A stretch of 64,000 nt of DNA from Nitrosopumilaceae archaeon (GTDB lineage: Archaea > Thermoproteota > Nitrososphaeria > Nitrososphaerales > Nitrosopumilaceae). The translations under genes and the position numbers were made by a program. Below are positions 1 through 10,590 of the stretch, one piece after another. The stretch covers positions 1,312,001 to 1,376,000 of the forward strand of contig OZ242376.1 in NCBI GenBank assembly GCA_965209085.1, read 5' to 3'. The first letter of the stretch is position 1. Each line of letters starts with the position of its first letter. The notes beneath the pieces were generated by a model. That model saw only the letters and a list, made by a program, of their open reading frames with translations, ran no database searches and had not been told where the DNA came from.

Positions 1-418
1 TATGATGTGACAGATACAAAATTCCAACATAACGCAGATCACCTATTGGAACTGACAAAAAAAGTCATATGTAAATCTCCAAAACATTTCACTACTGACG
101 GACTTCCGGCATACGCCAAATCATCTAAACGTGTATTCGGTAAAGATACACAATATCATGCACACATTCACTTGCGTAGACCGCAACAATAACAAAATGG
201 AACGGTTTAATGGAACCTTTAGAGATCGTGAATTGGTATTTAGAGGTTTAAAAAAATCAGATACGCCTTTGATCGGTGGCCATCAAGCATTTTACAATTA
301 CACTAAAAAACACATAGGTCTTGGCGGCAAAACTCTAGCAGAGGCTTCAAACATTAAAGTTGCAGGATTAAATAAATGACAAACTTTGATACAAAATGCT
401 AGTTTGCATACTTATGAA
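1..418 (+). pseudogene. IS6-family DDE transposase pseudogene (C-terminal fragment)
   Basis: ORFs 7..192 and 131..379 together match the C-terminus of 1912..3027 (TTDGLPAY, NNKMERFNGTFRDRE). There is a frameshift near 180 and a TGG->TGA stop at 377-379. The remaining QTLIQNASLHTYE is still readable up to 418. Confidence 0.88.
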
Positions 419-588
419 CGTTTTTCCCAAATGTGTGAAGTTTTTTTCTGAAATTCATCAAACTGTAATGAAGTTTTATTAAAAATATCCCGTGCTTCTT
501 CTTTTGTCATTTTATCATGTTCACATAACCAATCTAAAAGTGCCACCATTGGAGTATATTGATTGTTTAATGTATCGCCTTTGACCAT
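412..588 (-). CDS. Small hypothetical cargo protein (58 aa, MVKGDTLNNQYTPMVALLDWLCEHDKMTKEEARDIFNKTSLQFDEFQKKTSHIWEKRS)
   Basis: Manually translated ATG588..TAA412, below the ORF-track cutoff. It converges on the transposase end, as 1616..1906 does in the intact element. Confidence 0.5.
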   Translation of the reverse strand: MVKGDTLNNQYTPMVALLDWLCEHDKMTKEEARDIFNKTSLQFDEFQKKTSHIWEKRS

Positions 589-638
589 ATTGAATCTTGT
601 AATATATTTTATGAATAAATATGTTTTTAGTCAATCCA

Positions 639-721
639 GGCACGAGGTCACATCATGCCTAGAATTTACACAATAAATGAATATGTAGGCATAAAATAGC
701 ATGAGGTGCTGACCTCGTACC
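639..721. repeat. Imperfect ~83-bp inverted repeat / hairpin
   Basis: GGCACGAGGTCA (639-650) pairs with TGACCTCGTACC (710-721) at 11/12 positions, and pairing extends inward with bulges (CATCATGC / GCATGAGGTG). Confidence 0.6.
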
Positions 722-904
722 AATCCTGAGAAGATCCATATTTCACGCCTGACGCCTAAGTGTTGATAACTTTACAGAATCTAAAATTCTACATACTGTG
801 ATCAGAATTGAGACCATATCCCTAAGTTAACAGAAAAACACCCTAAATTAACAGCAGGTTGGAAATCGTGGAAAAGCCCTAAGAATTACCAGAGTATGAT
901 ATCA

Positions 905-929
905 GGTTCTGTAAACTTATCGGTGCATA
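905..929 (+). repeat. Terminal inverted repeat of IS6-like element (left in window)
   Basis: 25/25 reverse-complement match to 3920-3944. Confidence 0.92.
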
Positions 930-991
930 GGCGTGGATATGGATCTTCTCTGAATTGATTGTTTTATATGTTGGAATATGAGTTAAAAATT

Positions 992-1210
992 ATGAGTGAT
1001 TTATTGGATATTGATCGGATAGTTCCAGAACTGCCAGAAGGTTCACGTATGGATATGGTAGAGTGGGCAAATATGTTAGATGTTAAATTGCGAACATTAG
1101 ATGGTCGTACAAATAGTGCATTTCAGTACCGAGATAAAAGATATAACCAATTACAAGAATTGATTTCTACCATAGAAAAAGAAATTGATGATTTGAAAAA
1201 AAGACCATAA
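992..1210 (+). CDS. Small coiled-coil cargo protein A
   Basis: ORF 959..1210; the ATG at 992 lies downstream of TATA-like TTTTATAT (962-969). Has a VP...EWA motif and a C-terminal heptad pattern (LQELISTIEKEIDDLKK). Confidence 0.65.
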   Translation: MSDLLDIDRIVPELPEGSRMDMVEWANMLDVKLRTLDGRTNSAFQYRDKRYNQLQELISTIEKEIDDLKKRP

Positions 1211-1221
1211 TAAAATTTATC

Positions 1222-1259
1222 AAAAAGTGATCATTTTTTGAGTAAGATCAATAAAGGGG
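1222..1259 (+). promoter_or_regulatory. Duplicated promoter/operator module copy 1 (TGATC-N13-GATCA + AATAAAG)
   Basis: 35/38 identical to 1560-1597, with the same 28-nt offset from the end of GATCA to the ATG. Confidence 0.7.
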
Positions 1260-1277
1260 CATATTTTAAAATACATT

Positions 1278-1514
1278 ATGAGTTTAGCAGCTACTGTCCC
1301 AAATGAAGCACCAAATTGGTTTAGAGAGTGGGCAAAGGGTATGGATAGAGATACAATATTTGGAACTGCGATATTAGAACAATCGGACTATACATTGGAA
1401 AGTGTAAAGAGGGATTTTGGAAATTTTAATACACGAATGGATAAAATGGATAAAGATATTTTAGAGATAAAAGATGATATAAAAACTATAAAGAAATTGT
1501 TGACTAATAAATAA
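1278..1514 (+). CDS. Small coiled-coil cargo protein B
   Basis: 78-aa ORF with a VP...EWA motif and C-terminal heptads (MDKMDKDILEIKDDIKTIKKLL), preceded by the duplicated promoter module. Confidence 0.72.
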   Translation: MSLAATVPNEAPNWFREWAKGMDRDTIFGTAILEQSDYTLESVKRDFGNFNTRMDKMDKDILEIKDDIKTIKKLLTNK

Positions 1515-1559
1515 TTTATCGGTTTTATTCAGGTTCTGCAAATCATCTATGGATTGACA

Positions 1560-1597
1560 AAAAAGTGATCTTTTGTTGAGTTAGATCAATAAAGGGG
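1560..1597 (+). promoter_or_regulatory. Duplicated promoter/operator module copy 2
   Basis: 35/38 identical to 1222-1259; upstream of ATG1616. Confidence 0.7.
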
Positions 1598-1615
1598 TAG
1601 ATTGCATGATGTAGT

Positions 1616-1906
1616 ATGAGTAGATTAGATGAAATAAAATCTGTAAAAGATGTTACTGAACGTGATATACAAGAGTGGTGTGGCGATTTACGAAAACATG
1701 ATGATAAGGCGTTTAAATATATTGGTTGGTTGTTTTGGGTTCATCACGATTTTCTGAAATCGGGGTTTGAAGAAACGAAAGTTGCTATTAAAGAAATGAA
1801 AGATGATATTGAAAAAGTGAATGATAAATTGGTTAGTATGGATTCAAGGTTTGACAGCATGGATTCAAAATTGGATTCCATAAATGAAAAATTAGAAAAG
1901 TTGTAA
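1616..1906 (+). CDS. Small coiled-coil cargo protein C
   Basis: 96-aa ORF with an EWC motif and a heptad-repeat tail (LVSMDSR/FDSMDSK/LDSINEK). Confidence 0.72.
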   Translation: MSRLDEIKSVKDVTERDIQEWCGDLRKHDDKAFKYIGWLFWVHHDFLKSGFEETKVAIKEMKDDIEKVNDKLVSMDSRFDSMDSKLDSINEKLEKL

Positions 1907-1911
1907 TGCAA

Positions 1912-3027
1912 TTATTCATACGTATGCAAACTAGCATTTTGTATCAAAGTTTGCCATTTGTTTAATCCAGCAACCTTAATGTTTGAAGCTTCAGCAGGCG
2001 TTTTGCCACCAAGTCCTATGTGTTTTTTAGTGTAATTGTAAAATGCTTGATAGCCACCGATCAAAGGGGTATCGGATTTTTTCAAACCTCTAAATGCCAA
2101 TTCACGATCTCTGAATGTACCGTTAAAGCGTTCCATTTTATTATTATTACGATCTTTGCGTAAATGGATATGTGAATGATGTTCCGTATCTTTACCAAAT
2201 ACACGTTTAGATGATTTGGCGTATGCAGGAAGTCCGTCAGTTGTAAAATGTTTAGGCGATTTGCCTATGGCATTTTTTGTGAGCTCTAATAGACGATCTG
2301 CATTATGTTGGAATTTTGTATCTGCCATGTCATAAGCAAGGAAATAACGGGTTTGATCATCTATGGAAGCAAAAAGATATTTTTTCTGACCTGATACTTT
2401 GAGCCATACTTCATCAGCTCTAACCCATGTACGATCAGCGGTTCTTGGAATGATCTCATTTAGGTATTTTTCAACCATACGAGAATATTTGGCAATCCAT
2501 TTGTAAACTGCCATGTGGGATATTTTAATTCCCATCATCTCATAATGGTTGGCAATATCACGGACTGACATACCCGTGAAATACATTTGCATATCTCCAG
2601 TAATAGTAGAGGGTAAAACACGGGTATTTTCAAAGCCAAAGTTTGTTGTAAAAATTTTGGTACATTCTTGGCATTGATACTTTTGAAGTTTGCCGTGCCT
2701 ATTGGTTCTATAACCACGTTTACGTAAATTACCCGAACTGCAATATTTGCATAGGTTGAGCTTTGATCGTTCCATGATTTTAAATTCATTATTGGCATAT
2801 CCACGATTTTGTTTTATTATCTTTATAATGACATGAATATGTTTACAGTCGGATTTGCGGTATTGATGATCAGGGCATTCGCATACAAGACCGTTTCCAG
2901 TCCTAGAGACCGTATAGTATTTGTCGGGCGTGGACATGGATTTTACTTTGAATGTGTGGGTATCGGTTTGAGTTATTGCATTTGCCGTTTCTAGTATTTG
3001 GTTTGCTTGTTGTTTGCGTGTATTCAT
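1912..3027 (-). CDS. IS6-family DDE transposase with N-terminal SWIM zinc finger and Zn ribbon
   Basis: SWIM motif CECPD-x6-CKH; CxxC...CxxC ribbon (CKYC, CQEC); DDE motifs RADEVW, TTDG and NNKMER. Confidence 0.9.
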   Translation of the reverse strand: MNTRKQQANQILETANAITQTDTHTFKVKSMSTPDKYYTVSRTGNGLVCECPDHQYRKSDCKHIHVIIKIIKQNRGYANNEFKIMERSKLNLCKYCSSGNLRKRGYRTNRHGKLQKYQCQECTKIFTTNFGFENTRVLPSTITGDMQMYFTGMSVRDIANHYEMMGIKISHMAVYKWIAKYSRMVEKYLNEIIPRTADRTWVRADEVWLKVSGQKKYLFASIDDQTRYFLAYDMADTKFQHNADRLLELTKNAIGKSPKHFTTDGLPAYAKSSKRVFGKDTEHHSHIHLRKDRNNNKMERFNGTFRDRELAFRGLKKSDTPLIGGYQAFYNYTKKHIGLGGKTPAEASNIKVAGLNKWQTLIQNASLHTYE

Positions 3028-3037
3028 ACAGTTGGTA

Positions 3038-3097
3038 TTAAGAGTACGCTTAATATATGTATCTGTTAATAGTACGCTTAATTAAGAGATCGCTTAA
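3038..3097. promoter_or_regulatory. Three 16-bp near-palindromic operator-like sites between the divergent transposase and AbrB-like genes
   Basis: TTAAGAGTACGCTTAA (3038-3053), TTAATAGTACGCTTAA (3066-3081), TTAAGAGATCGCTTAA (3082-3097). Confidence 0.75.
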
Positions 3098-3127
3098 TTA
3101 ATATGGTAATAGGTTATTGCACCGTGT

Positions 3128-3298
3128 ATGACACGGTGGAAAAAAGATGAGACGGAATTTACAGTCAGCTTATCACATGACGGTGGGCTTGGAATGATTG
3201 CACGCATACCTAAACCAATTAGGGAAGAGTTGGGCAATCCTACCAAGATTAAATTTCTAAAGTATAAGGGTAAAATATTAGTAGATTCTGGAGATTAA
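3128..3298 (+). CDS. AbrB/MazE/SpoVT-like small DNA-binding protein (56 aa)
   Basis: Manual translation MTRWKKDETEFTVSLSHDGGLGMIARIPKPIREELGNPTKIKFLKYKGKILVDSGD; the IPKPIREELG...KIKF...GKILV pattern fits a swapped-hairpin fold. Confidence 0.72.
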   Translation: MTRWKKDETEFTVSLSHDGGLGMIARIPKPIREELGNPTKIKFLKYKGKILVDSGD

Positions 3299-3304
3299 AA
3301 CGGT

Positions 3305-3445
3305 TCATAGAATTTTGCGATCACGGATAAGGCGTGTGCAATATTCAAGACCATGACTGCGATTTCTAAATATTCCCGATTTTACCTGTTTGTCAATCCA
3401 TCTTAAGATTTCAGCTTCTATGGATATGGCGATCTTATGCTTCAC
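3305..3445 (-). CDS. Ribbon-helix-helix (CopG/Arc/MetJ-like) DNA-binding protein (46 aa)
   Basis: Manual translation from GTG3445: MKHKIAISIEAEILRWIDKQVKSGIFRNRSHGLEYCTRLIRDRKIL. Pattern is a beta-strand KIAISI, a helix, then the G.F.NRS turn typical of RHH proteins. Confidence 0.75.
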   Translation of the reverse strand: MKHKIAISIEAEILRWIDKQVKSGIFRNRSHGLEYCTRLIRDRKIL

Positions 3446-3452
3446 ATGGTAC

Positions 3453-3497
3453 AGTATGACTAGGTATGATTAAAATACGGTATGATAAAGTCATACT
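3453..3497. promoter_or_regulatory. Operator-like repeats between the divergent RHH gene and the membrane-protein gene
   Basis: AGTATGACT (3453-3461) is inverted with AGTCATACT (3489-3497); GGTATGAT direct repeats at 3463 and 3479. Confidence 0.6.
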
Positions 3498-3500
3498 TTT

Positions 3501-3878
3501 GTGAGTGCAGTTAAGGGATTTCTAGCAGGGGGGTTTACAGTATTTGTATTTTTTATCATAGTATTGACAGGTTTTGCACTAGATTCAGATATTGAATATA
3601 CGAATGATTCAGGTATTGCCCATACGAATGAATTAAACTATACGGATAGAGCAGTACTGATAAAATTAGCTCAAAACTGTTATGGCAGAGATACTGATTG
3701 CTATGTAAAAAATTTGGGGTATGGGTTGGATAATAATGATAAATACATAATAGAATCATGGACAAATACTTGTCAGACATTTAGCAAATATCAATATGAT
3801 CGTTGCTGGAGTATAGATAGCGAGGATGCTGGCATAATTACTAGCATACGAAATATGCACTTAAAAGCGGAAAAATGA
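3501..3878 (+). CDS. Membrane-anchored/secreted hypothetical cargo protein with 4 Cys
   Basis: 125-aa ORF with an N-terminal hydrophobic segment (FLAGGFTVFVFFIIVLTGFAL); lies inside the TIRs. Confidence 0.7.
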   Translation: MSAVKGFLAGGFTVFVFFIIVLTGFALDSDIEYTNDSGIAHTNELNYTDRAVLIKLAQNCYGRDTDCYVKNLGYGLDNNDKYIIESWTNTCQTFSKYQYDRCWSIDSEDAGIITSIRNMHLKAEK

Positions 3879-3919
3879 CGATTTTTGGTTGATTTGGTTG
3901 ATCGCTATTTATGGTCAAA

Positions 3920-3944
3920 TATGCACCGATAAGTTTACAGAACC
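3920..3944 (-). repeat. Terminal inverted repeat of IS6-like element (right in window)
   Basis: TATGCACCGATAAGTTTACAGAACC, exact reverse complement of 905-929. Confidence 0.92.
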
Positions 3945-3987
3945 AAGAATCGCACAGCTTATATACACAAGTACCGTACTTTACGGT

Positions 3988-4141: not shown

Positions 4142-5383
4142 ATGGTATTGACAGTCAAAAAGAAAAAATCAAAAAAAGCATCCGTAAAACGATCGGCTAG
4201 GCCTGTAAAAACAAAAGCATCCAAGCCTGTAAAATCAAAGACTGCTAGACCGACAAGGCCTGTAAAAACAAATGCTTCAAGATCGGCAAATACAGACAAG
4301 AGTATGACTTTGATCATAGAATCGACAAAAACGGTCTCAAAGGAGATAAAGACAATCTCAAAGATCTTTACGGACAATCAAAAAATACTGGAATCCATGA
4401 AAACCATGATAACCACCCTCTCTGGAACCATGCAGCACATTGACAGGCATTCCAAACAAATTATGCTGTTGGAAAATGAATCTCAAAAAATTCAGGCGGA
4501 CCTGCGCCAGGTAAATCAAAAGGCAGAGTCTGTGAAACCATCAGGCGCAATTAATGGCAATATTGAAAAAAGACTGGTCGCAATTGAAAACGAATCAAAT
4601 TTTGTACAGGTAAAGGAAATAATGTCAGAATGTCTTAAAATTACAAAAACTAGCGGACAAACTTTGGATAAAATATCAGATTATCTAAATAGTGCATCCA
4701 ATACAAACGCTGACAATATTGAATCAAAACTCGACGCCAATGCCAAGATGCTTGATGATGTCAGAAAACATCTTTACGATCATGTGCAGGATGGTGCGGA
4801 TAAAAATATCAAAAATGAAATCTCTGAAAAAATATCGACAATTTCTCGCGAGATTGCAGGATTACGCGAGCAGATACGCAGCGTTTCAGATGCGCAAATA
4901 ACTGACGAGCTTACAGACCACATGAGTGCCATATCCTCAAAAGCGGAGGTTCTCATGGGCATTCCGGCAGAATTACTAGAGATGCAGTCCCGTCTGAATT
5001 CCATAGAAGGAAAAATTGCAGAGAAAAAAGATTCCAGTGAAAAACAGCCATCAATTACGTTGCTAGAATATCAGGTAAAAATTCGCATGAATTCAGAATC
5101 AAAGTACGGGGATACAGACGAGCTGCAATCCATGATAGATCAGACCTCCGAGGTACTCCAAACAATTGAAAAAAACAAAAGCACCGGTATTTCAAAATGG
5201 GGCGTTTCACGCATTTTAGAGTGCGCCGACAGATGGGAGTTGCGATTCTCAGATGTACTAGCAATGATGAAAGATACGCTTGGTGCAGACATACTAAAGG
5301 AAGCAATTCGGATAAAACAGGTCAAAGACGTATACGGTGTGCGCGCAGTAGAGGATACAAAATCCCTTTTGGGTTTAGACTAG
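4142..5383 (+). CDS. Coiled-coil hypothetical protein with Lys/Ser-rich repetitive N-terminus
   Basis: 413-aa ORF with RPVKT-type repeats followed by long heptad regions. Confidence 0.8.
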   Translation: MVLTVKKKKSKKASVKRSARPVKTKASKPVKSKTARPTRPVKTNASRSANTDKSMTLIIESTKTVSKEIKTISKIFTDNQKILESMKTMITTLSGTMQHIDRHSKQIMLLENESQKIQADLRQVNQKAESVKPSGAINGNIEKRLVAIENESNFVQVKEIMSECLKITKTSGQTLDKISDYLNSASNTNADNIESKLDANAKMLDDVRKHLYDHVQDGADKNIKNEISEKISTISREIAGLREQIRSVSDAQITDELTDHMSAISSKAEVLMGIPAELLEMQSRLNSIEGKIAEKKDSSEKQPSITLLEYQVKIRMNSESKYGDTDELQSMIDQTSEVLQTIEKNKSTGISKWGVSRILECADRWELRFSDVLAMMKDTLGADILKEAIRIKQVKDVYGVRAVEDTKSLLGLD

Positions 5384-7413
5384 ACTCCGGGAGGCGGTAT
5401 TTTATCAGGTTCTGTAAGAGTGTCTTTTTTGTGCTTTAATGCTGCAAAGATTACGATAATCAGAGCTGCCCATAGTACTGAAATTATGATGTTTGAAATG
5501 CTCACATATGTATACGGTATTGCATCAAGTATGTGATCGGATATTTCCTGGGATCGTGCTTTCATATCCAACATTCCGGTATTGTACGCAGAGCTGTCCG
5601 CAGATATGGTTGCAAGAATTTGTACGCTTGAGAGCATTGTGTCAAGATCCCGCTGCATTCTCGCATAGTTTGTAGTCTCCGTAGGGAATATCCACACAGG
5701 GTTGCCGTCTCTTGGAAGATTACTCTTTATGGACAAAATATACTCTTGAATGTCCTGCGGGTCAGAGCTTGCAGATATTGCATCCAAAAGTCCTCGAGAC
5801 AGATCCAGGGGGTATACCTGCGAGGAGTATCCAATGTAGGCAGTTATCCCTCCGGCCACTATGAGTGCAAGGATGCCAGATAATGCAATTTTGTATGTAA
5901 TATTTGCCATTCTTTGCTCCCTGGAAATTGGTGCATTTAGCTTTGATTTATTTGTTTTAAAACGCGAATGAGAGATGCTCATTATTGCAATATACAAAAA
6001 TCCGATGGTTGGAATCAGTATTACTGGGACAAATGACGGATTGTTGGAGTATATTGCAATCATAACGCCGAATATTCCGTAAATGCCAAAGAATATTTCA
6101 AGCAGGGTCGTCTTTGTGAACGGCAAATTGTAGGCTTTATCGTCCCATTTGTCGGATTTTTTTAGTATGCCGTATTTTGGAGTGCGCAGAAATTCGTTTT
6201 TTTTGCCAAAAATGGCATCAAATACGGCCACAGTGTTGTTTACGGACAGCCCCGCATTGTATATTATAAGATACGGCAGCTGTTGCAGTTTTGAGGGCCA
6301 GGATTTGCCGTACATTTTTTGTATAATCAGGGCGTATGCAAAAGGACCCATTGCAATGTACGTGGCAAGAGTCACGGCGGGAAGATAGCTTACGATGTAC
6401 AGATTTACCTCTGAGGCAAGCAGGATTGGAAGTGTAAGAAACTGCAGCAGTATCAGCGGGAATACGATATGGCGCGTAAGCTGGATAAACGCCTGTATTT
6501 TTGTATCAACTTGTATTTTTCTTTTTACGGCAATACTTGCTCCCTGTTTTATGGCGCACTGTATGGATCCTTTTGCCCATCGAAACTGCTGCCTTTTTAC
6601 TGCATTCATTTGCACCGGCAGTTCAGCATCAACTACAATATCCGGTAAAAATATGCATTCCCATCCGCGCATCTGTGCACGGTAGCTTAGATCAAGATCT
6701 TCAACCAATGTTGTAGAATGCCAGCCGCCTGAATCCTCTATGCAGTTGCGCCGCCACACGCCAGCTGTTCCGTTAAAATTCATAAATAAATGCGAATGAC
6801 TCTTTGCTTTCTGCTCTATAAGAAAATGAAAGTCCAAGCTCATCGCCTGCGCCTGCGTTATGGAAGAATAGTTTTCATTTGCATGTCCCCACCGGCACTG
6901 GATAAATCCAATGTTTGGTTTTGAAAAATGTGGCAGTACGCGCTTTAGAAACCACGGTTTTGGCATAAAGTCCGCATCAAATATGGCCACAAAATCCGTG
7001 TTTGTCATACTCATGGCGTATTTTAACGCCCCCGCCTTGTAACCGGACCGCGTTGGGCGCCGGACATGCTCTATACGGAATCCCAATTCACGGTATTTTT
7101 TTACAAGATTTGCGACAAGTTCCACGGTATCATCATCAGAATCATCTAGCACCATGATTCTCATCTGCTCTTTTGGATAATCTATTTTACATACTGCATC
7201 AATCAGCCTTGTTGCAACGTATTTTTCATTATATATTGGAAGATGTATCGTAACTGAATCAGCTTTGAATGCCACAACGCTCAAGTTTACAATACGGCGT
7301 GAAGAGAGCAGGACAAGATAGTAAAAATTCAGCGTATACATTGTGATTACAAGTGCGGATACGAGAAAAAGATTGAAAATGGCTCCCATGAACGGATTTA
7401 AGACGATTTCCAT
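5380..7413 (-). CDS. GT2 family glycosyltransferase (cellulose synthase-like), membrane
   Basis: DDSDD, KAGAL, FDADF, LVEDLD and QQFRW motifs; multiple TM helices. Confidence 0.92.
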   Translation of the reverse strand: MEIVLNPFMGAIFNLFLVSALVITMYTLNFYYLVLLSSRRIVNLSVVAFKADSVTIHLPIYNEKYVATRLIDAVCKIDYPKEQMRIMVLDDSDDDTVELVANLVKKYRELGFRIEHVRRPTRSGYKAGALKYAMSMTNTDFVAIFDADFMPKPWFLKRVLPHFSKPNIGFIQCRWGHANENYSSITQAQAMSLDFHFLIEQKAKSHSHLFMNFNGTAGVWRRNCIEDSGGWHSTTLVEDLDLSYRAQMRGWECIFLPDIVVDAELPVQMNAVKRQQFRWAKGSIQCAIKQGASIAVKRKIQVDTKIQAFIQLTRHIVFPLILLQFLTLPILLASEVNLYIVSYLPAVTLATYIAMGPFAYALIIQKMYGKSWPSKLQQLPYLIIYNAGLSVNNTVAVFDAIFGKKNEFLRTPKYGILKKSDKWDDKAYNLPFTKTTLLEIFFGIYGIFGVMIAIYSNNPSFVPVILIPTIGFLYIAIMSISHSRFKTNKSKLNAPISREQRMANITYKIALSGILALIVAGGITAYIGYSSQVYPLDLSRGLLDAISASSDPQDIQEYILSIKSNLPRDGNPVWIFPTETTNYARMQRDLDTMLSSVQILATISADSSAYNTGMLDMKARSQEISDHILDAIPYTYVSISNIIISVLWAALIIVIFAALKHKKDTLTEPDKIPPPGV

Positions 7414-9371: not shown

Positions 9372-9846
9372 AATACTTGACGCAAGTGCGTTTTACGCAG
9401 GCGTTCCGTTTGGATCCACTGAAAAATATTATACTAGTACGCAGATATTTGACGAGATCAGCCACATAAAGGAAAAACACGGCGCCATTGACTTGCTGCT
9501 TGGGACTGGGAGATTGGATGTAAGGCAGGCAAATGAGAAATCACTAGAGGTGGTAAAAAAAGCATCAGTTGAATCCGGAGACGCGCAGACACTCTCCAAG
9601 AGTGACATCTCACTGCTAGCTTTGGGATATGAAATGAAAGGTGAGATTGTAACTGACGATTATGCCGTATCAAATGTGGCAAAAAGACTCAACATTGTAG
9701 TGCTGCCTGTTATGACCGGAGGCATAAAAGATACCGGAAGATGGATCAGATACTGCTCTGGGTGCTCTAAAGAATTTTCAACAGAAAAGATATGTCCCCA
9801 ATGCGGCAATCCGTTAAAGAAAAAATTACTCAAGCGGGAGACCTAG
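9361..9846 (+). CDS. nob1: NOB1 family PIN-domain endonuclease
   Basis: ILDASAF, LSKSD and TDDYAVSN motifs; C-terminal CxxC...CPxCG Zn ribbon. Confidence 0.9.
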   Translation: MAFRILDASAFYAGVPFGSTEKYYTSTQIFDEISHIKEKHGAIDLLLGTGRLDVRQANEKSLEVVKKASVESGDAQTLSKSDISLLALGYEMKGEIVTDDYAVSNVAKRLNIVVLPVMTGGIKDTGRWIRYCSGCSKEFSTEKICPQCGNPLKKKLLKRET

Positions 9847-10590
9847 GCCTCTCCACTGGACAAAAGAGCCATCATACAGGCGCACTTTTTCAAATCCGGC
9901 TAGACGAAGCTGGTAGAAAAGGCTAGAGGCGCGGGTTCCATGCATGCAATAGCAGACAAGTTCCTTATCGCGCGGAATATTGGAAAATATTTTTTCAAGT
10001 TTTTCTGAATCCATAAAATGCATGCCAGCATCCCCAAGTCCGCTCGTATGCGGCATTAAAACGGCACCTGGCAGATGACCTGCCGAATATTCGGGCATGC
10101 TGCGCGCATCAATTACGTACGAGTCCGAGGATTGGATGAATTTTGCATCAACTAGCATAGAGTTATCAGGATTTGATTCAAATTTTGCAAAAGTGACATC
10201 TTTTACAATCTCTGACATTTTTATCCCGTTTTTTCGAAGCAGTGCAATGCTCTCCTGTATGCAATATACGTCGCTATGCCCTGCATACTCTAGAGCCCAC
10301 GCGATTCGCGCCATTGCCGGATCCGTATAGTCGCCTGCCAAAACCACCGGACGCGCAGAATCAATGCCCATGCTTGCAAACGCTGCGGCAGCCTTTGCAG
10401 GATCCAGTGCAAGGTGAGCTCCAAATTCCCCCTCTGTAATGACGTTTTGTATTGTAATTACAACAGAATTTTCCAAACGGCCGCTACGCGCAAACATCTT
10501 CATGCGCGTATCCACAAGTATCGGATTTTTACCGGATTCTTGCATTTGTACGTATTTTTCATACGGCACTAGTTTCACAAACTGCGGCAC
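9826..10590 (-). CDS. Tandem rhodanese-domain sulfurtransferase
   Basis: IDARS..EY..GHLPGA, YCMHGTRA and LYDGSFVQW motifs. Confidence 0.88.
   Translation of the reverse strand: MPQFVKLVPYEKYVQMQESGKNPILVDTRMKMFARSGRLENSVVITIQNVITEGEFGAHLALDPAKAAAAFASMGIDSARPVVLAGDYTDPAMARIAWALEYAGHSDVYCIQESIALLRKNGIKMSEIVKDVTFAKFESNPDNSMLVDAKFIQSSDSYVIDARSMPEYSAGHLPGAVLMPHTSGLGDAGMHFMDSEKLEKIFSNIPRDKELVCYCMHGTRASSLFYQLRLAGFEKVRLYDGSFVQWRGLGLPLE

Follow-up and report, generated by a model that had tools for sequence, protein, structure and literature searches.

An IS6-family element with a single transposase, a divergent AbrB-like partner gene and passengers on both sides in a Nitrosopumilaceae genome

The stretch of DNA analysed here, called the window, comprises 64 kb from a Nitrosopumilaceae archaeon (GCA_965209085.1, contig OZ242376.1, positions 1,312,001-1,376,000), and coordinates without a prefix refer to it. 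The whole source genome, denoted G000, is a single contig of 1.69 Mb. Our subject is an insertion sequence (IS) of the IS6 family at 905-3944, whose 3,040 bp contain seven open reading frames (ORFs), with one transposase gene between the terminal inverted repeats (TIRs). This places it outside the compact, transposase-only IS6 format (about 0.7-0.9 kb, reaching about 1.8 kb in the zinc-finger clades). Its features are as follows.

905..929, + strand: left TIR, 25/25 complementary to 3920-3944, starting GGTTCTGTAAAC..., with an IS6-type GG tip and CTGT motif
992..1210 (ATG start, 72 amino acids (aa)) or from a TTG at 959 (83 aa), + strand: passenger A, a small coiled-coil protein
1278..1514, + strand: passenger B, a 78-aa coiled-coil ORFan
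1532..1549, + strand: internal TIR-like relic, GGTTCTGCAAATCATC, directly 5' of C, with a 10/12 match to the TIR core
1616..1906, + strand: passenger C, 96 aa, with a repetitive coiled coil at the C-terminus
1912..3027, - strand: transposase, 371 aa, with an IS6/IS240 DDE core
3028..3127, no strand: candidate divergent promoter/operator region with three imperfect 17-bp palindromes
3128..3298, + strand: AbrB/MazE-like protein, 56 aa, with the N-terminal motif WKKDETEF
3305..3445, - strand: ribbon-helix-helix (RHH)-like protein, 46 aa, GTG start
3446..3500, no strand: 55-bp spacer separating the divergent RHH and membrane-protein genes; GTATGA occurs three times in direct and, as TCATAC, once in inverted orientation (read by eye)
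3501..3878, + strand: membrane-protein passenger, 125 aa; one membrane helix at the N-terminus, four conserved cysteines
3920..3944, - strand: right TIR, partner of 905-929

An earlier note on this DNA had described perfect 25-bp TIRs around 3,040 bp, and this was borne out: the two repeats are the only such sites in the window at up to three mismatches, and none arose in 100 shuffles. The gene order that it gave, with A, B and C converging on the transposase gene, the AbrB-like gene divergent from the transposase gene and convergent with the RHH gene, and the membrane-protein gene divergent from the last, agrees with the ORF positions.

Searching the source genome by BLAST, as the earlier note had proposed, we found a second TIR-to-TIR copy at G000 570889-575328. 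Copy 2 is identical to the window copy at 3,033 of 3,040 bases and has the same two TIR tips; five of the seven differences are in the transposase gene, one is in A and one is in the membrane-protein gene. It is flanked by a perfect 8-bp direct repeat, TGTGATAA, 8 bp being the length of IS6 target duplications, and its flanks are unrelated to those of the window copy. Given the identical ends, the unrelated flanks and the 8-bp duplication, the whole TIR-to-TIR unit has transposed. The unit, with the passengers on both sides, moves as one element with one transposase, and the earlier proposal of a single-transposase "transporter" IS with passengers on either side of the transposase is thereby supported.

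Within G000, tblastn placed the six accessory proteins in the two copies of the element only. In two public sequencing runs, contig depth over the element was roughly double that of its right flank, and loose contig ends at 904 and 3944 led on into the sequences that flank copy 2. Run X2 also had a small number of low-depth joints, such as 958 to 1912, which, having sides of <30 nt, were set aside. A search of JGI metagenome contigs for the exact TIR gave no match. Of the two copies, only that in the window has an intact transposase gene, the gene of copy 2 being interrupted by a 1.4-kb IS (G000 572804-574198) that encodes a DDE_Tnp_4 transposase. This IS5-like element, with >30 BLAST matches genome-wide, is expanded in the small genome of G000 and has inactivated the copy 2 transposase.

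The window transposase matched the Pfam family PF13610 (DDE_Tnp_IS240) with an E value of 1.4e-15 and 58.1 bits, against a cutoff of 27. Among annotated proteins, that of the clostridial ISCpe7 was the best match (28.6% identity, residues 75-356). In an alignment of 13 sequences including ISCpe7, Asp 205, Asp 264 and Glu 299 are invariant and Arg 306 is nearly so, with Lys in ISCpe7. The IS6 family is recognised by a DDE triad followed by Lys or Arg (legend to Fig. 2 of a 2021 review, PMC7986276, which is cited throughout for the parts available to us), and the window transposase has this arrangement. The family's GG tip and cTGTt motif are both present in the TIRs, which at 25 bp are longer than the 15-20 bp quoted in the available text of the review (PMC7986276). 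The transposase also has a zinc ribbon (Cys 93, Cys 96, Cys 119 and Cys 122) and an extra N-terminal SWIM-like CxC...CxH motif (Cys 49, Cys 51, Cys 61 and His 63). Two further IS6-like transposase genes in G000 encode proteins with 40% and 32% identity to it, and no TIR pair was detected around either.

When 60 related genomes were searched at the DNA level, matches were confined to the transposase part of the element, and around these matches lay five elements with GGTTCTGT-tipped ends and lengths between 1,951 and 6,770 bp. We use L-numbers for loci around related transposases; coordinates after an L-number are local to that locus. L013, a same-genus element of 2,965 bp, is flanked by the target duplication TATACAAA and encodes an AbrB-like protein together with a 442-aa methyltransferase-HNH fusion. 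In L014, of 6,770 bp, the duplication is TTTCATGA and the cargo comprises a methyltransferase and five further ORFs. In the closest relatives, with transposase genes at 76-78% nucleotide identity, the TIR lies about 200-270 bp past the transposase stop codon and cargo is found on the other side only, without A, B and C. The A-B-C side is specific to the lineage of the window element.

A transposase profile search with one genome per species gave 76 related loci, of which nearly all belong to metagenome-assembled genomes of Nitrosopumilaceae. With one exception, a weak cyanobacterial match, they were from records titled Nitrosopumilus, Nitrosarchaeum, Cenarchaeum, Nitrosopumilaceae, Nitrososphaerales, Thaumarchaeota or (one record) "archaeon". 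TIR pairs, defined as 24-mers with a GGTTCTGT tip that enclose the transposase gene and match at 20 or more of 24 positions, were present in 46 of the 76, delimiting elements of 1,855-9,950 bp (median 3,368 bp). The 8-bp flanks were identical in 25 of these 46, agreed at 7/8 positions in 2 and at no more than 5/8 in 19. Three were dropped before further counts: L053 and L094, in which the flanks are reverse-complementary and the "TIRs" are part of longer inverted duplications, and L030, a duplicate of L029 with the same flanks. Most of the 43 elements kept (33) exceed 2.5 kb, and the smallest relative, at 1,855 bp, consists of the transposase gene and an AbrB-like gene.

All ORFs of 55 aa or more other than the transposase genes, 166 in the 43 elements, were compared with Pfam, and the output was tallied by reading. 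DNA methyltransferase or restriction components occurred in 23 of the 43 elements. The restriction-modification (R-M) types included N6_N4_Mtase, EcoRI methylase with GmrSD-HNH, BglII, CfrBI, MunI with MT-A70, Mrr, MmeI, type I HsdM/HsdS, and a ResIII-type enzyme with a methylase. Other cargo included SocA/Panacea (L052), a CAP12-type TIR domain (L073), NurA (L023) and DUF4760 (L072), and numerous cargo ORFs matched no Pfam family. L024 and L027, from the chromosome of one metagenome-assembled genome, are 95.9% identical in the transposase gene and right end and 89% identical in the left 122 bp, whereas their interiors, of 5.0 and 2.0 kb, are unrelated between fixed breakpoints; cargo has therefore been exchanged on a constant backbone. 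The comparison of TIR-to-TIR units that the earlier note had called for revealed cargo that varies across the family.

Two further observations were made on the related loci. A tRNA gene of 85-90 nt lies inside the element in 6 of 72 loci scanned (L027:9875-9960, L033:9866-9952, L034:9866-9952, L037:9873-9960, L053:9866-9950 and L061:9872-9961), on the transposase strand, 40-51 bp 5' of the transposase start and between it and the AbrB-like gene. These genes scored 53-60 bits in Rfam, and ARAGORN assigned the anticodons Ile-TAT, Ile-GAT, Leu-CAG and Phe-GAA; they may be cargo or may serve the transposase gene as a promoter or processed leader. The window element has no tRNA insert. Elements of 1.29 kb with the family TIRs (23-24 of 24 positions) lie at L043:1493-2780, L067:4659-5949 and L092:3384-4674 and hold no IS6 transposase. 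Those of L043 and L067 have 8-bp target duplications and a single gene for a 381-397-aa TnpB/Cas12f-like protein (Pfam Cas12f1-like_TNB, 73-75 bits), and would be non-autonomous IS6-type elements that carry a TnpB nuclease.

The picture given in the earlier note needs one correction for the AbrB-like gene, which is not a passenger. A hidden Markov model built from the 56-aa protein found 29 ORFs, 25 of which are at distinct sites outside G000; these lie in 21 of the 76 loci and in L013, L014 and L019. All but three of the genes (the exceptions being the second copy in L067, L057 and L075) are directly 5' of the transposase gene and divergent from it. Because the AbrB-like gene stands beside the transposase gene in 21 of 76 loci, and does so in the smallest (1.9 kb) elements of the family as well, it belongs to the core of the element as a conserved partner of the transposase and is not cargo. 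The family shares the N-terminal WKKDETEF motif and an IPKPI segment. An AlphaFold (AF2) model of the 56-aa protein on the family alignment had a pLDDT of 79, and the top ranks of a Foldseek comparison with the PDB were MazE, AbrB-N, VapB, SpoVT, the archaeal plasmid proteins C56/C68 and Sso7c4. The model thus suggests a swapped-hairpin fold, at weak scores; a search of PDB sequences with the AbrB-like profile gave only a chance match. In five other elements, the small gene that occupies the place of the AbrB-like gene passes the PF04014 cutoff or falls within 1.4 bits of it. In L017/L026:9701-9913(-), L018:4580-4837(-) and L046:9700-9915(-), the slot beside the transposase gene holds an unrelated protein of 71-85 aa, one of which has a weak SSV1 ORF D-335-like match. 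The regulator module itself seems to be exchangeable among family members.

The 100-bp spacer between the transposase and AbrB-like genes contains three copies of TTAAKAGWWCGCTTAAT, starting at 3038, 3066 and 3082, where none is expected by chance, and these belong to 17-bp imperfect palindromes at 3038-3054, 3066-3082 and 3082-3098. In 21 elements the corresponding spacers contain two or three copies of a repeat of 10-24 nt whose sequence is specific to the element, TAACCAATAGGATA being the putative operator of L014. Repeats are mostly about 21-31 bp apart, as against 16 bp between two of the three in the window. The observed repeat length was reached by no more than 4 of 200 mononucleotide shuffles in 16 of the 21 spacers. 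A conserved layout with a co-varying repeat sequence resembles cognate repressor-operator pairs, and the 56-aa protein may bind these repeats.

The proteins A, B, C, the RHH-like protein and the membrane protein had no match in the 76 related loci and are near-orphans. The earlier note had called the first three genes a small-protein array. Three ORFs do stand in a row, but phmmer searches (E<0.01) linked none of A, B and C to another, and their pairwise alignments have 19-23% identity; the sole clearly related part is the 69 nt upstream of B and C (78% identical). Among 5.8 billion proteins A has one homologue, also of 72 aa, with 61% identity, and the homologue search with B returned B itself only. 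Below 1e-10 C matched only itself, its other 26 matches being repeat or coiled-coil, and it had weak Atlas leads to archaeal coiled-coil proteins (0.84). The 37 small ORFs between the transposase gene and the near TIR in the relatives could not be grouped into families, either among themselves or with A, B or C (blastp, E<0.01).

The left side of the element may have been built up in two steps. The TIR-like sequence at 1532-1549 may be an older left end, in which case the A-B segment (905-1531) would have been added outside it later, with an outer TIR from another element, to an ancestor of about 2.4 kb made up of a TIR, C, the transposase gene, the AbrB-like and RHH genes, the membrane-protein gene and a TIR. 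This history would fit both the nearest relatives, which lack A, B and C, and the arrangement of TIR, one small convergent ORF and transposase stop seen in several relatives and in a remnant upstream of the element, described below. Against this, chance alone would give about 0.2 matches of such quality to the TIR core in 3 kb (4.31 per 64 kb), the end at 905 is the one used by both full copies, and the search of G000 revealed no copy that ends at 1532. We regard the later addition of A and B as possible, though somewhat unlikely.

For the right side, an N-terminal hydrophobic helix in the membrane protein was read from its sequence. This protein has one homologue, of equal length and with 79% identity, in which Cys 60, Cys 67, Cys 91 and Cys 102 are kept; it was not found in JGI metagenome contigs and had no usable Atlas match. 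No cargo protein of the window element matched any family above cutoff in Pfam, PADLOC, NCBIfam or PHROGs. Matches of the RHH-like protein were sub-threshold, with 17.7 bits to NCBIfam ParD (cutoff 46.2) and an E value of 0.063 to NikR. Its single-sequence monomer model has two helices, and the best Foldseek matches were ParD RHH domains, with weak E values of 4.6-8.7.

These two genes could form an addiction or defence module, the RHH-like protein controlling, or serving as antitoxin to, a membrane protein that acts as a toxin or in virus or superinfection exclusion. Such cargo would stabilise the element, as R-M cargo would in its sisters, and is compatible with its being a transporter IS. 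The methyltransferase or restriction genes in 23 of 43 sister elements and the SocA/Panacea, CAP12-type TIR and NurA cargo of others make this plausible, as do the ParD-like matches and the kept length and cysteines of the membrane protein. However, PADLOC returned no matches for any of eight proteins, no toxin family was recognised, the membrane protein has a single homologue, and the two genes are divergent, unlike the co-transcribed genes of typical type II pairs. An addiction or defence role is in our view doubtful. By analogy with the defence cargo of the sister elements, the cargo may tentatively be read as a self-regulated surface or exclusion module. A type II toxin-antitoxin pair of the AbrB-like and RHH genes was rejected, since these genes are convergent and no toxin family was recognised among the element proteins in Pfam, NCBIfam or PADLOC.

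The upstream side of the element contains the remains of a related IS6 element, which end 123 bp before it and are 85-89% identical in the transposase gene over the two arms found.

1..781, + strand: related IS6 3' remnant, outside the element, with transposase residues 219-371, a frameshift and a degenerate end at about 721-781
412-588, - strand: 58-aa ORF of this remnant, convergent with its transposase gene

On the downstream side, a genome of the same genus (G001) has collinear homology, at 74% over 4.5 kb, that begins at 3952, 8 bp past the right TIR (G001:C6:4541). The 4.5 kb upstream of that point in G001, with four ORFs, has no match in G000. Since the DNA upstream of 3952 is thus unrelated in the two genomes, the element lies at a synteny break. 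The search for an empty site joining 904 to 3945, which the earlier note had suggested, yielded no empty allele; what G001 provides is the edge of a variable region at the end of the element. The break fits an adjacent rearrangement of the IS6 type, which would explain the missing duplication of the window copy.

Solo matches to the end of the element occur at G000 256787-256844, 1079911-1079938, 1435302-1435354, 1466419-1466471 and 1625891-1625967. They cover 28 nt at 100% identity or 53-80 nt at 79-91%, one of them abuts another DDE_Tnp_4 IS, and they are likely relics of further copies. Within the window, 21 nt at 5397-5417 are 90% identical to 894-914, that is, to the first 10 nt of the left TIR and 11 nt outside it. 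They lie within the last codons of a 677-aa ORF at 5380-7413 (-) and may be due to chance or be an insertion-site relic. Copy 2 has repeats beside it that may resemble miniature inverted-repeat transposable elements. One is an 80-nt repeat at L096:3723-3804 (G000 ~570611-570693), with 84-93% identity to at least 11 other places in G000, and the other, of about 115 nt at L096 ~9825-9938, occurs at 3 places and as separate halves at 2 more.

Given such an IS-rich genome, the related remnant 123 bp upstream, the TIR-like relic at 1532 and the classical habit of IS6 elements of moving cargo between two copies (PMC7986276, in the text available), the repeats could be the outer ends of two different decayed elements with chromosomal genes trapped between them, as a composite or by chance. 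We consider this very improbable: only one transposase gene lies between the repeats, the 3,040-bp unit recurs with an 8-bp duplication, and 25 related single-transposase elements have 8-bp duplications as well. Equally improbable is an origin of the two copies by segmental duplication or gene conversion, for which their 99.8% identity and the window copy's lack of a target duplication could be cited, since identity ends exactly at both TIR tips between unrelated flanks, the 8-bp repeat has the IS6 length, and the contigs of independent runs agree, in depth and loose ends, with two insertion sites. A composite or pseudo-compound transposon was rejected because the TIRs enclose a single transposase gene and not two IS copies, and a provirus or integrative element because none of the seven ORFs matched an integrase or viral family above the Pfam cutoff.

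We conclude that 905-3944 is very probably an autonomous transporter IS (tIS) of the IS6 family with an AbrB-like core module and cargo. The pairing of regulators with operators, the copy-in mechanism and any function of the cargo are what we infer beyond this. One zinc-finger DDE transposase would recognise both 25-bp GG-tipped TIRs, move everything between them and leave an 8-bp duplication. Judging from the behaviour of the family (PMC7986276, in part), the route would be the usual IS6 copy-in pathway through cointegrates, which would explain family members without duplications; the numerous relatives of this kind are compatible with copy-in and not diagnostic of it. The core module would consist of the transposase and the divergent 56-aa AbrB/MazE-like protein, which most likely binds the three 17-bp palindromes and controls the transposase gene, its own expression, or both. 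The cargo would be the RHH-like protein and the cysteine-containing membrane protein on one side and the three coiled-coil proteins on the other, with the RHH-like protein probably repressing its own promoter and the divergent promoter of the membrane-protein gene.

Several results weigh against this interpretation. The window copy has no target duplication (TGATATCA versus AAGAATCG). The empty-site joint of 904 to 3945 was absent from the contigs of four public runs, contigs being unable to show absence, and an empty site for copy 2 was not found in 30 related genomes searched, in which its 1.5-kb flanks are not conserved. The transposase covers positions 1-201 of 202 of the NCBIfam transpos_IS6 profile (E value of 1.4e-33), at 116.3 bits against an equivalog cutoff of 125, and its identity to every annotated IS6 transposase is <30%. 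Neither the AbrB-like nor the RHH-like protein of the window reached a Pfam threshold, and none of the 25 AbrB-like family members matched PF04014 at E values up to 1. The fold matches of the 56-aa protein had a probability of 0.97 and TM scores of 0.64-0.68, with weak E values of 0.2-0.3. In 5 of the 21 spacers (L045, L040, L067, L023 and L085) the repeats were no better than in shuffles. Finally, the three ORFs on the left side could be non-functional, A alone having a homologue and B and C lacking one.

The wider family may be read as a set of general gene shuttles. The zinc-finger IS6 clade of the Nitrosopumilaceae would then have a constant backbone of two GG-tipped ends, the transposase and an AbrB-like repressor with its own cognate operator, together with interchangeable cargo. 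The cargo seen ranges from complete R-M systems of several kinds and other defence genes to tRNA genes and, in transposase-less derivatives, TnpB-type nucleases. The orphan cargo of the window element would be a new self-regulated surface or exclusion function. We lean slightly towards this reading, which if true would contradict the statement of a 2019 survey of the thaumarchaeal mobilome, in its available text, that passenger-gene transposons were undetected in archaea (PMC6563490).

The family is widespread and apparently undescribed, and it mostly ferries R-M genes. Target duplications prove the mobility of this cargo-carrying IS6 lineage, in which a single transposase routinely carries 1-8 kb of cargo in globally abundant ammonia oxidisers, whereas IS6 is the textbook case of cargo that is moved only between two IS copies. 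The lineage offers a concrete vehicle for the spread of defence systems among small, streamlined archaeal genomes, and it provides a compact, predicted regulator-operator pair as well as a natural system for studying cargo swapping inside an IS backbone.

Passenger-carrying ISs are already a named category, the tIS, with passengers unrelated to transposition inside the TIRs of one IS (PMC7986276, in the part available), and the passengers of the window element lie inside one TIR pair and are moved with it. The archaeal IS6 clades that the available text lists from ISfinder are haloarchaeal, Thermococcales/Methanococcales and Sulfolobales (PMC7986276). The 2019 survey describes thaumarchaeal IS-like transposons as having "typically 1 or 2 genes", and the whole word "IS6" does not occur in its main text (PMC6563490). 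In the part available of a 2026 survey of archaeal ISs (PMC13343696), "passenger" is absent and the two occurrences of "cargo" were not seen to mean IS passengers. A cargo-carrying archaeal IS6 clade did not come up in full-text literature searches. The earlier suggestion of an undescribed archaeal mobile system appears to hold for the clade and not for the category, since the tIS is already named and ISDsp3 listed.

ISDsp3, from Dehalococcoides sp. BAV1, is given as the only IS6 member with a passenger in the available text of the 2021 review (PMC7986276). Like the window element, it has a single transposase and a passenger inside its own ends. ISDsp3 is bacterial, occurs as a single copy and has one hypothetical passenger, whereas the window element has six extra ORFs on both sides of the transposase gene, two predicted regulators, and two copies with a target duplication. 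In its clade cargo is the rule, 33 of 43 elements exceeding 2.5 kb. The pseudo-compound transposons of IS26 and IS257 share with the window element the GG-tipped TIR, the CTGT motif and the target duplication. Their cargo lies between two directly repeated IS copies and is moved by cointegration followed by recombination (PMC7986276, in part), whereas that of the window element lies inside one IS.

The transposases of clade h are zinc-finger proteins of 340-350 aa and mostly clostridial, according to the available text (PMC7986276). ISCpe7 and the other clostridial zinc-finger IS6 elements of this clade have the same CxxC...CxxC ribbon and DDE-K/R core as the window element. At the ISCpe7 locus the transposase is the sole annotated gene attributable to ISCpe7. 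The archaeal proteins differ in the added N-terminal SWIM-like CxC...CxH motif and in the AbrB-like partner gene. The element of the window is in these terms an archaeal zinc-finger IS6 tIS with a predicted cognate small regulator.

For this regulator, the comparison systems are the C proteins of mobile R-M systems and the swapped-hairpin regulators AbrB, MazE and VapB. In both, and putatively in the window element, a small dimeric DNA binder stands at the head of the cargo and faces repeated operators in a divergent promoter. Classical C proteins are helix-turn-helix proteins, whereas the 56-aa protein would be of another fold class, and the window element has no recognised toxin partner. In L013 the AbrB-like stop codon overlaps the start of the methyltransferase-HNH gene, an arrangement that can be likened to that of R-M controllers. 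Unlike those controllers, the AbrB-like gene also occurs in elements without R-M cargo, the window element included.

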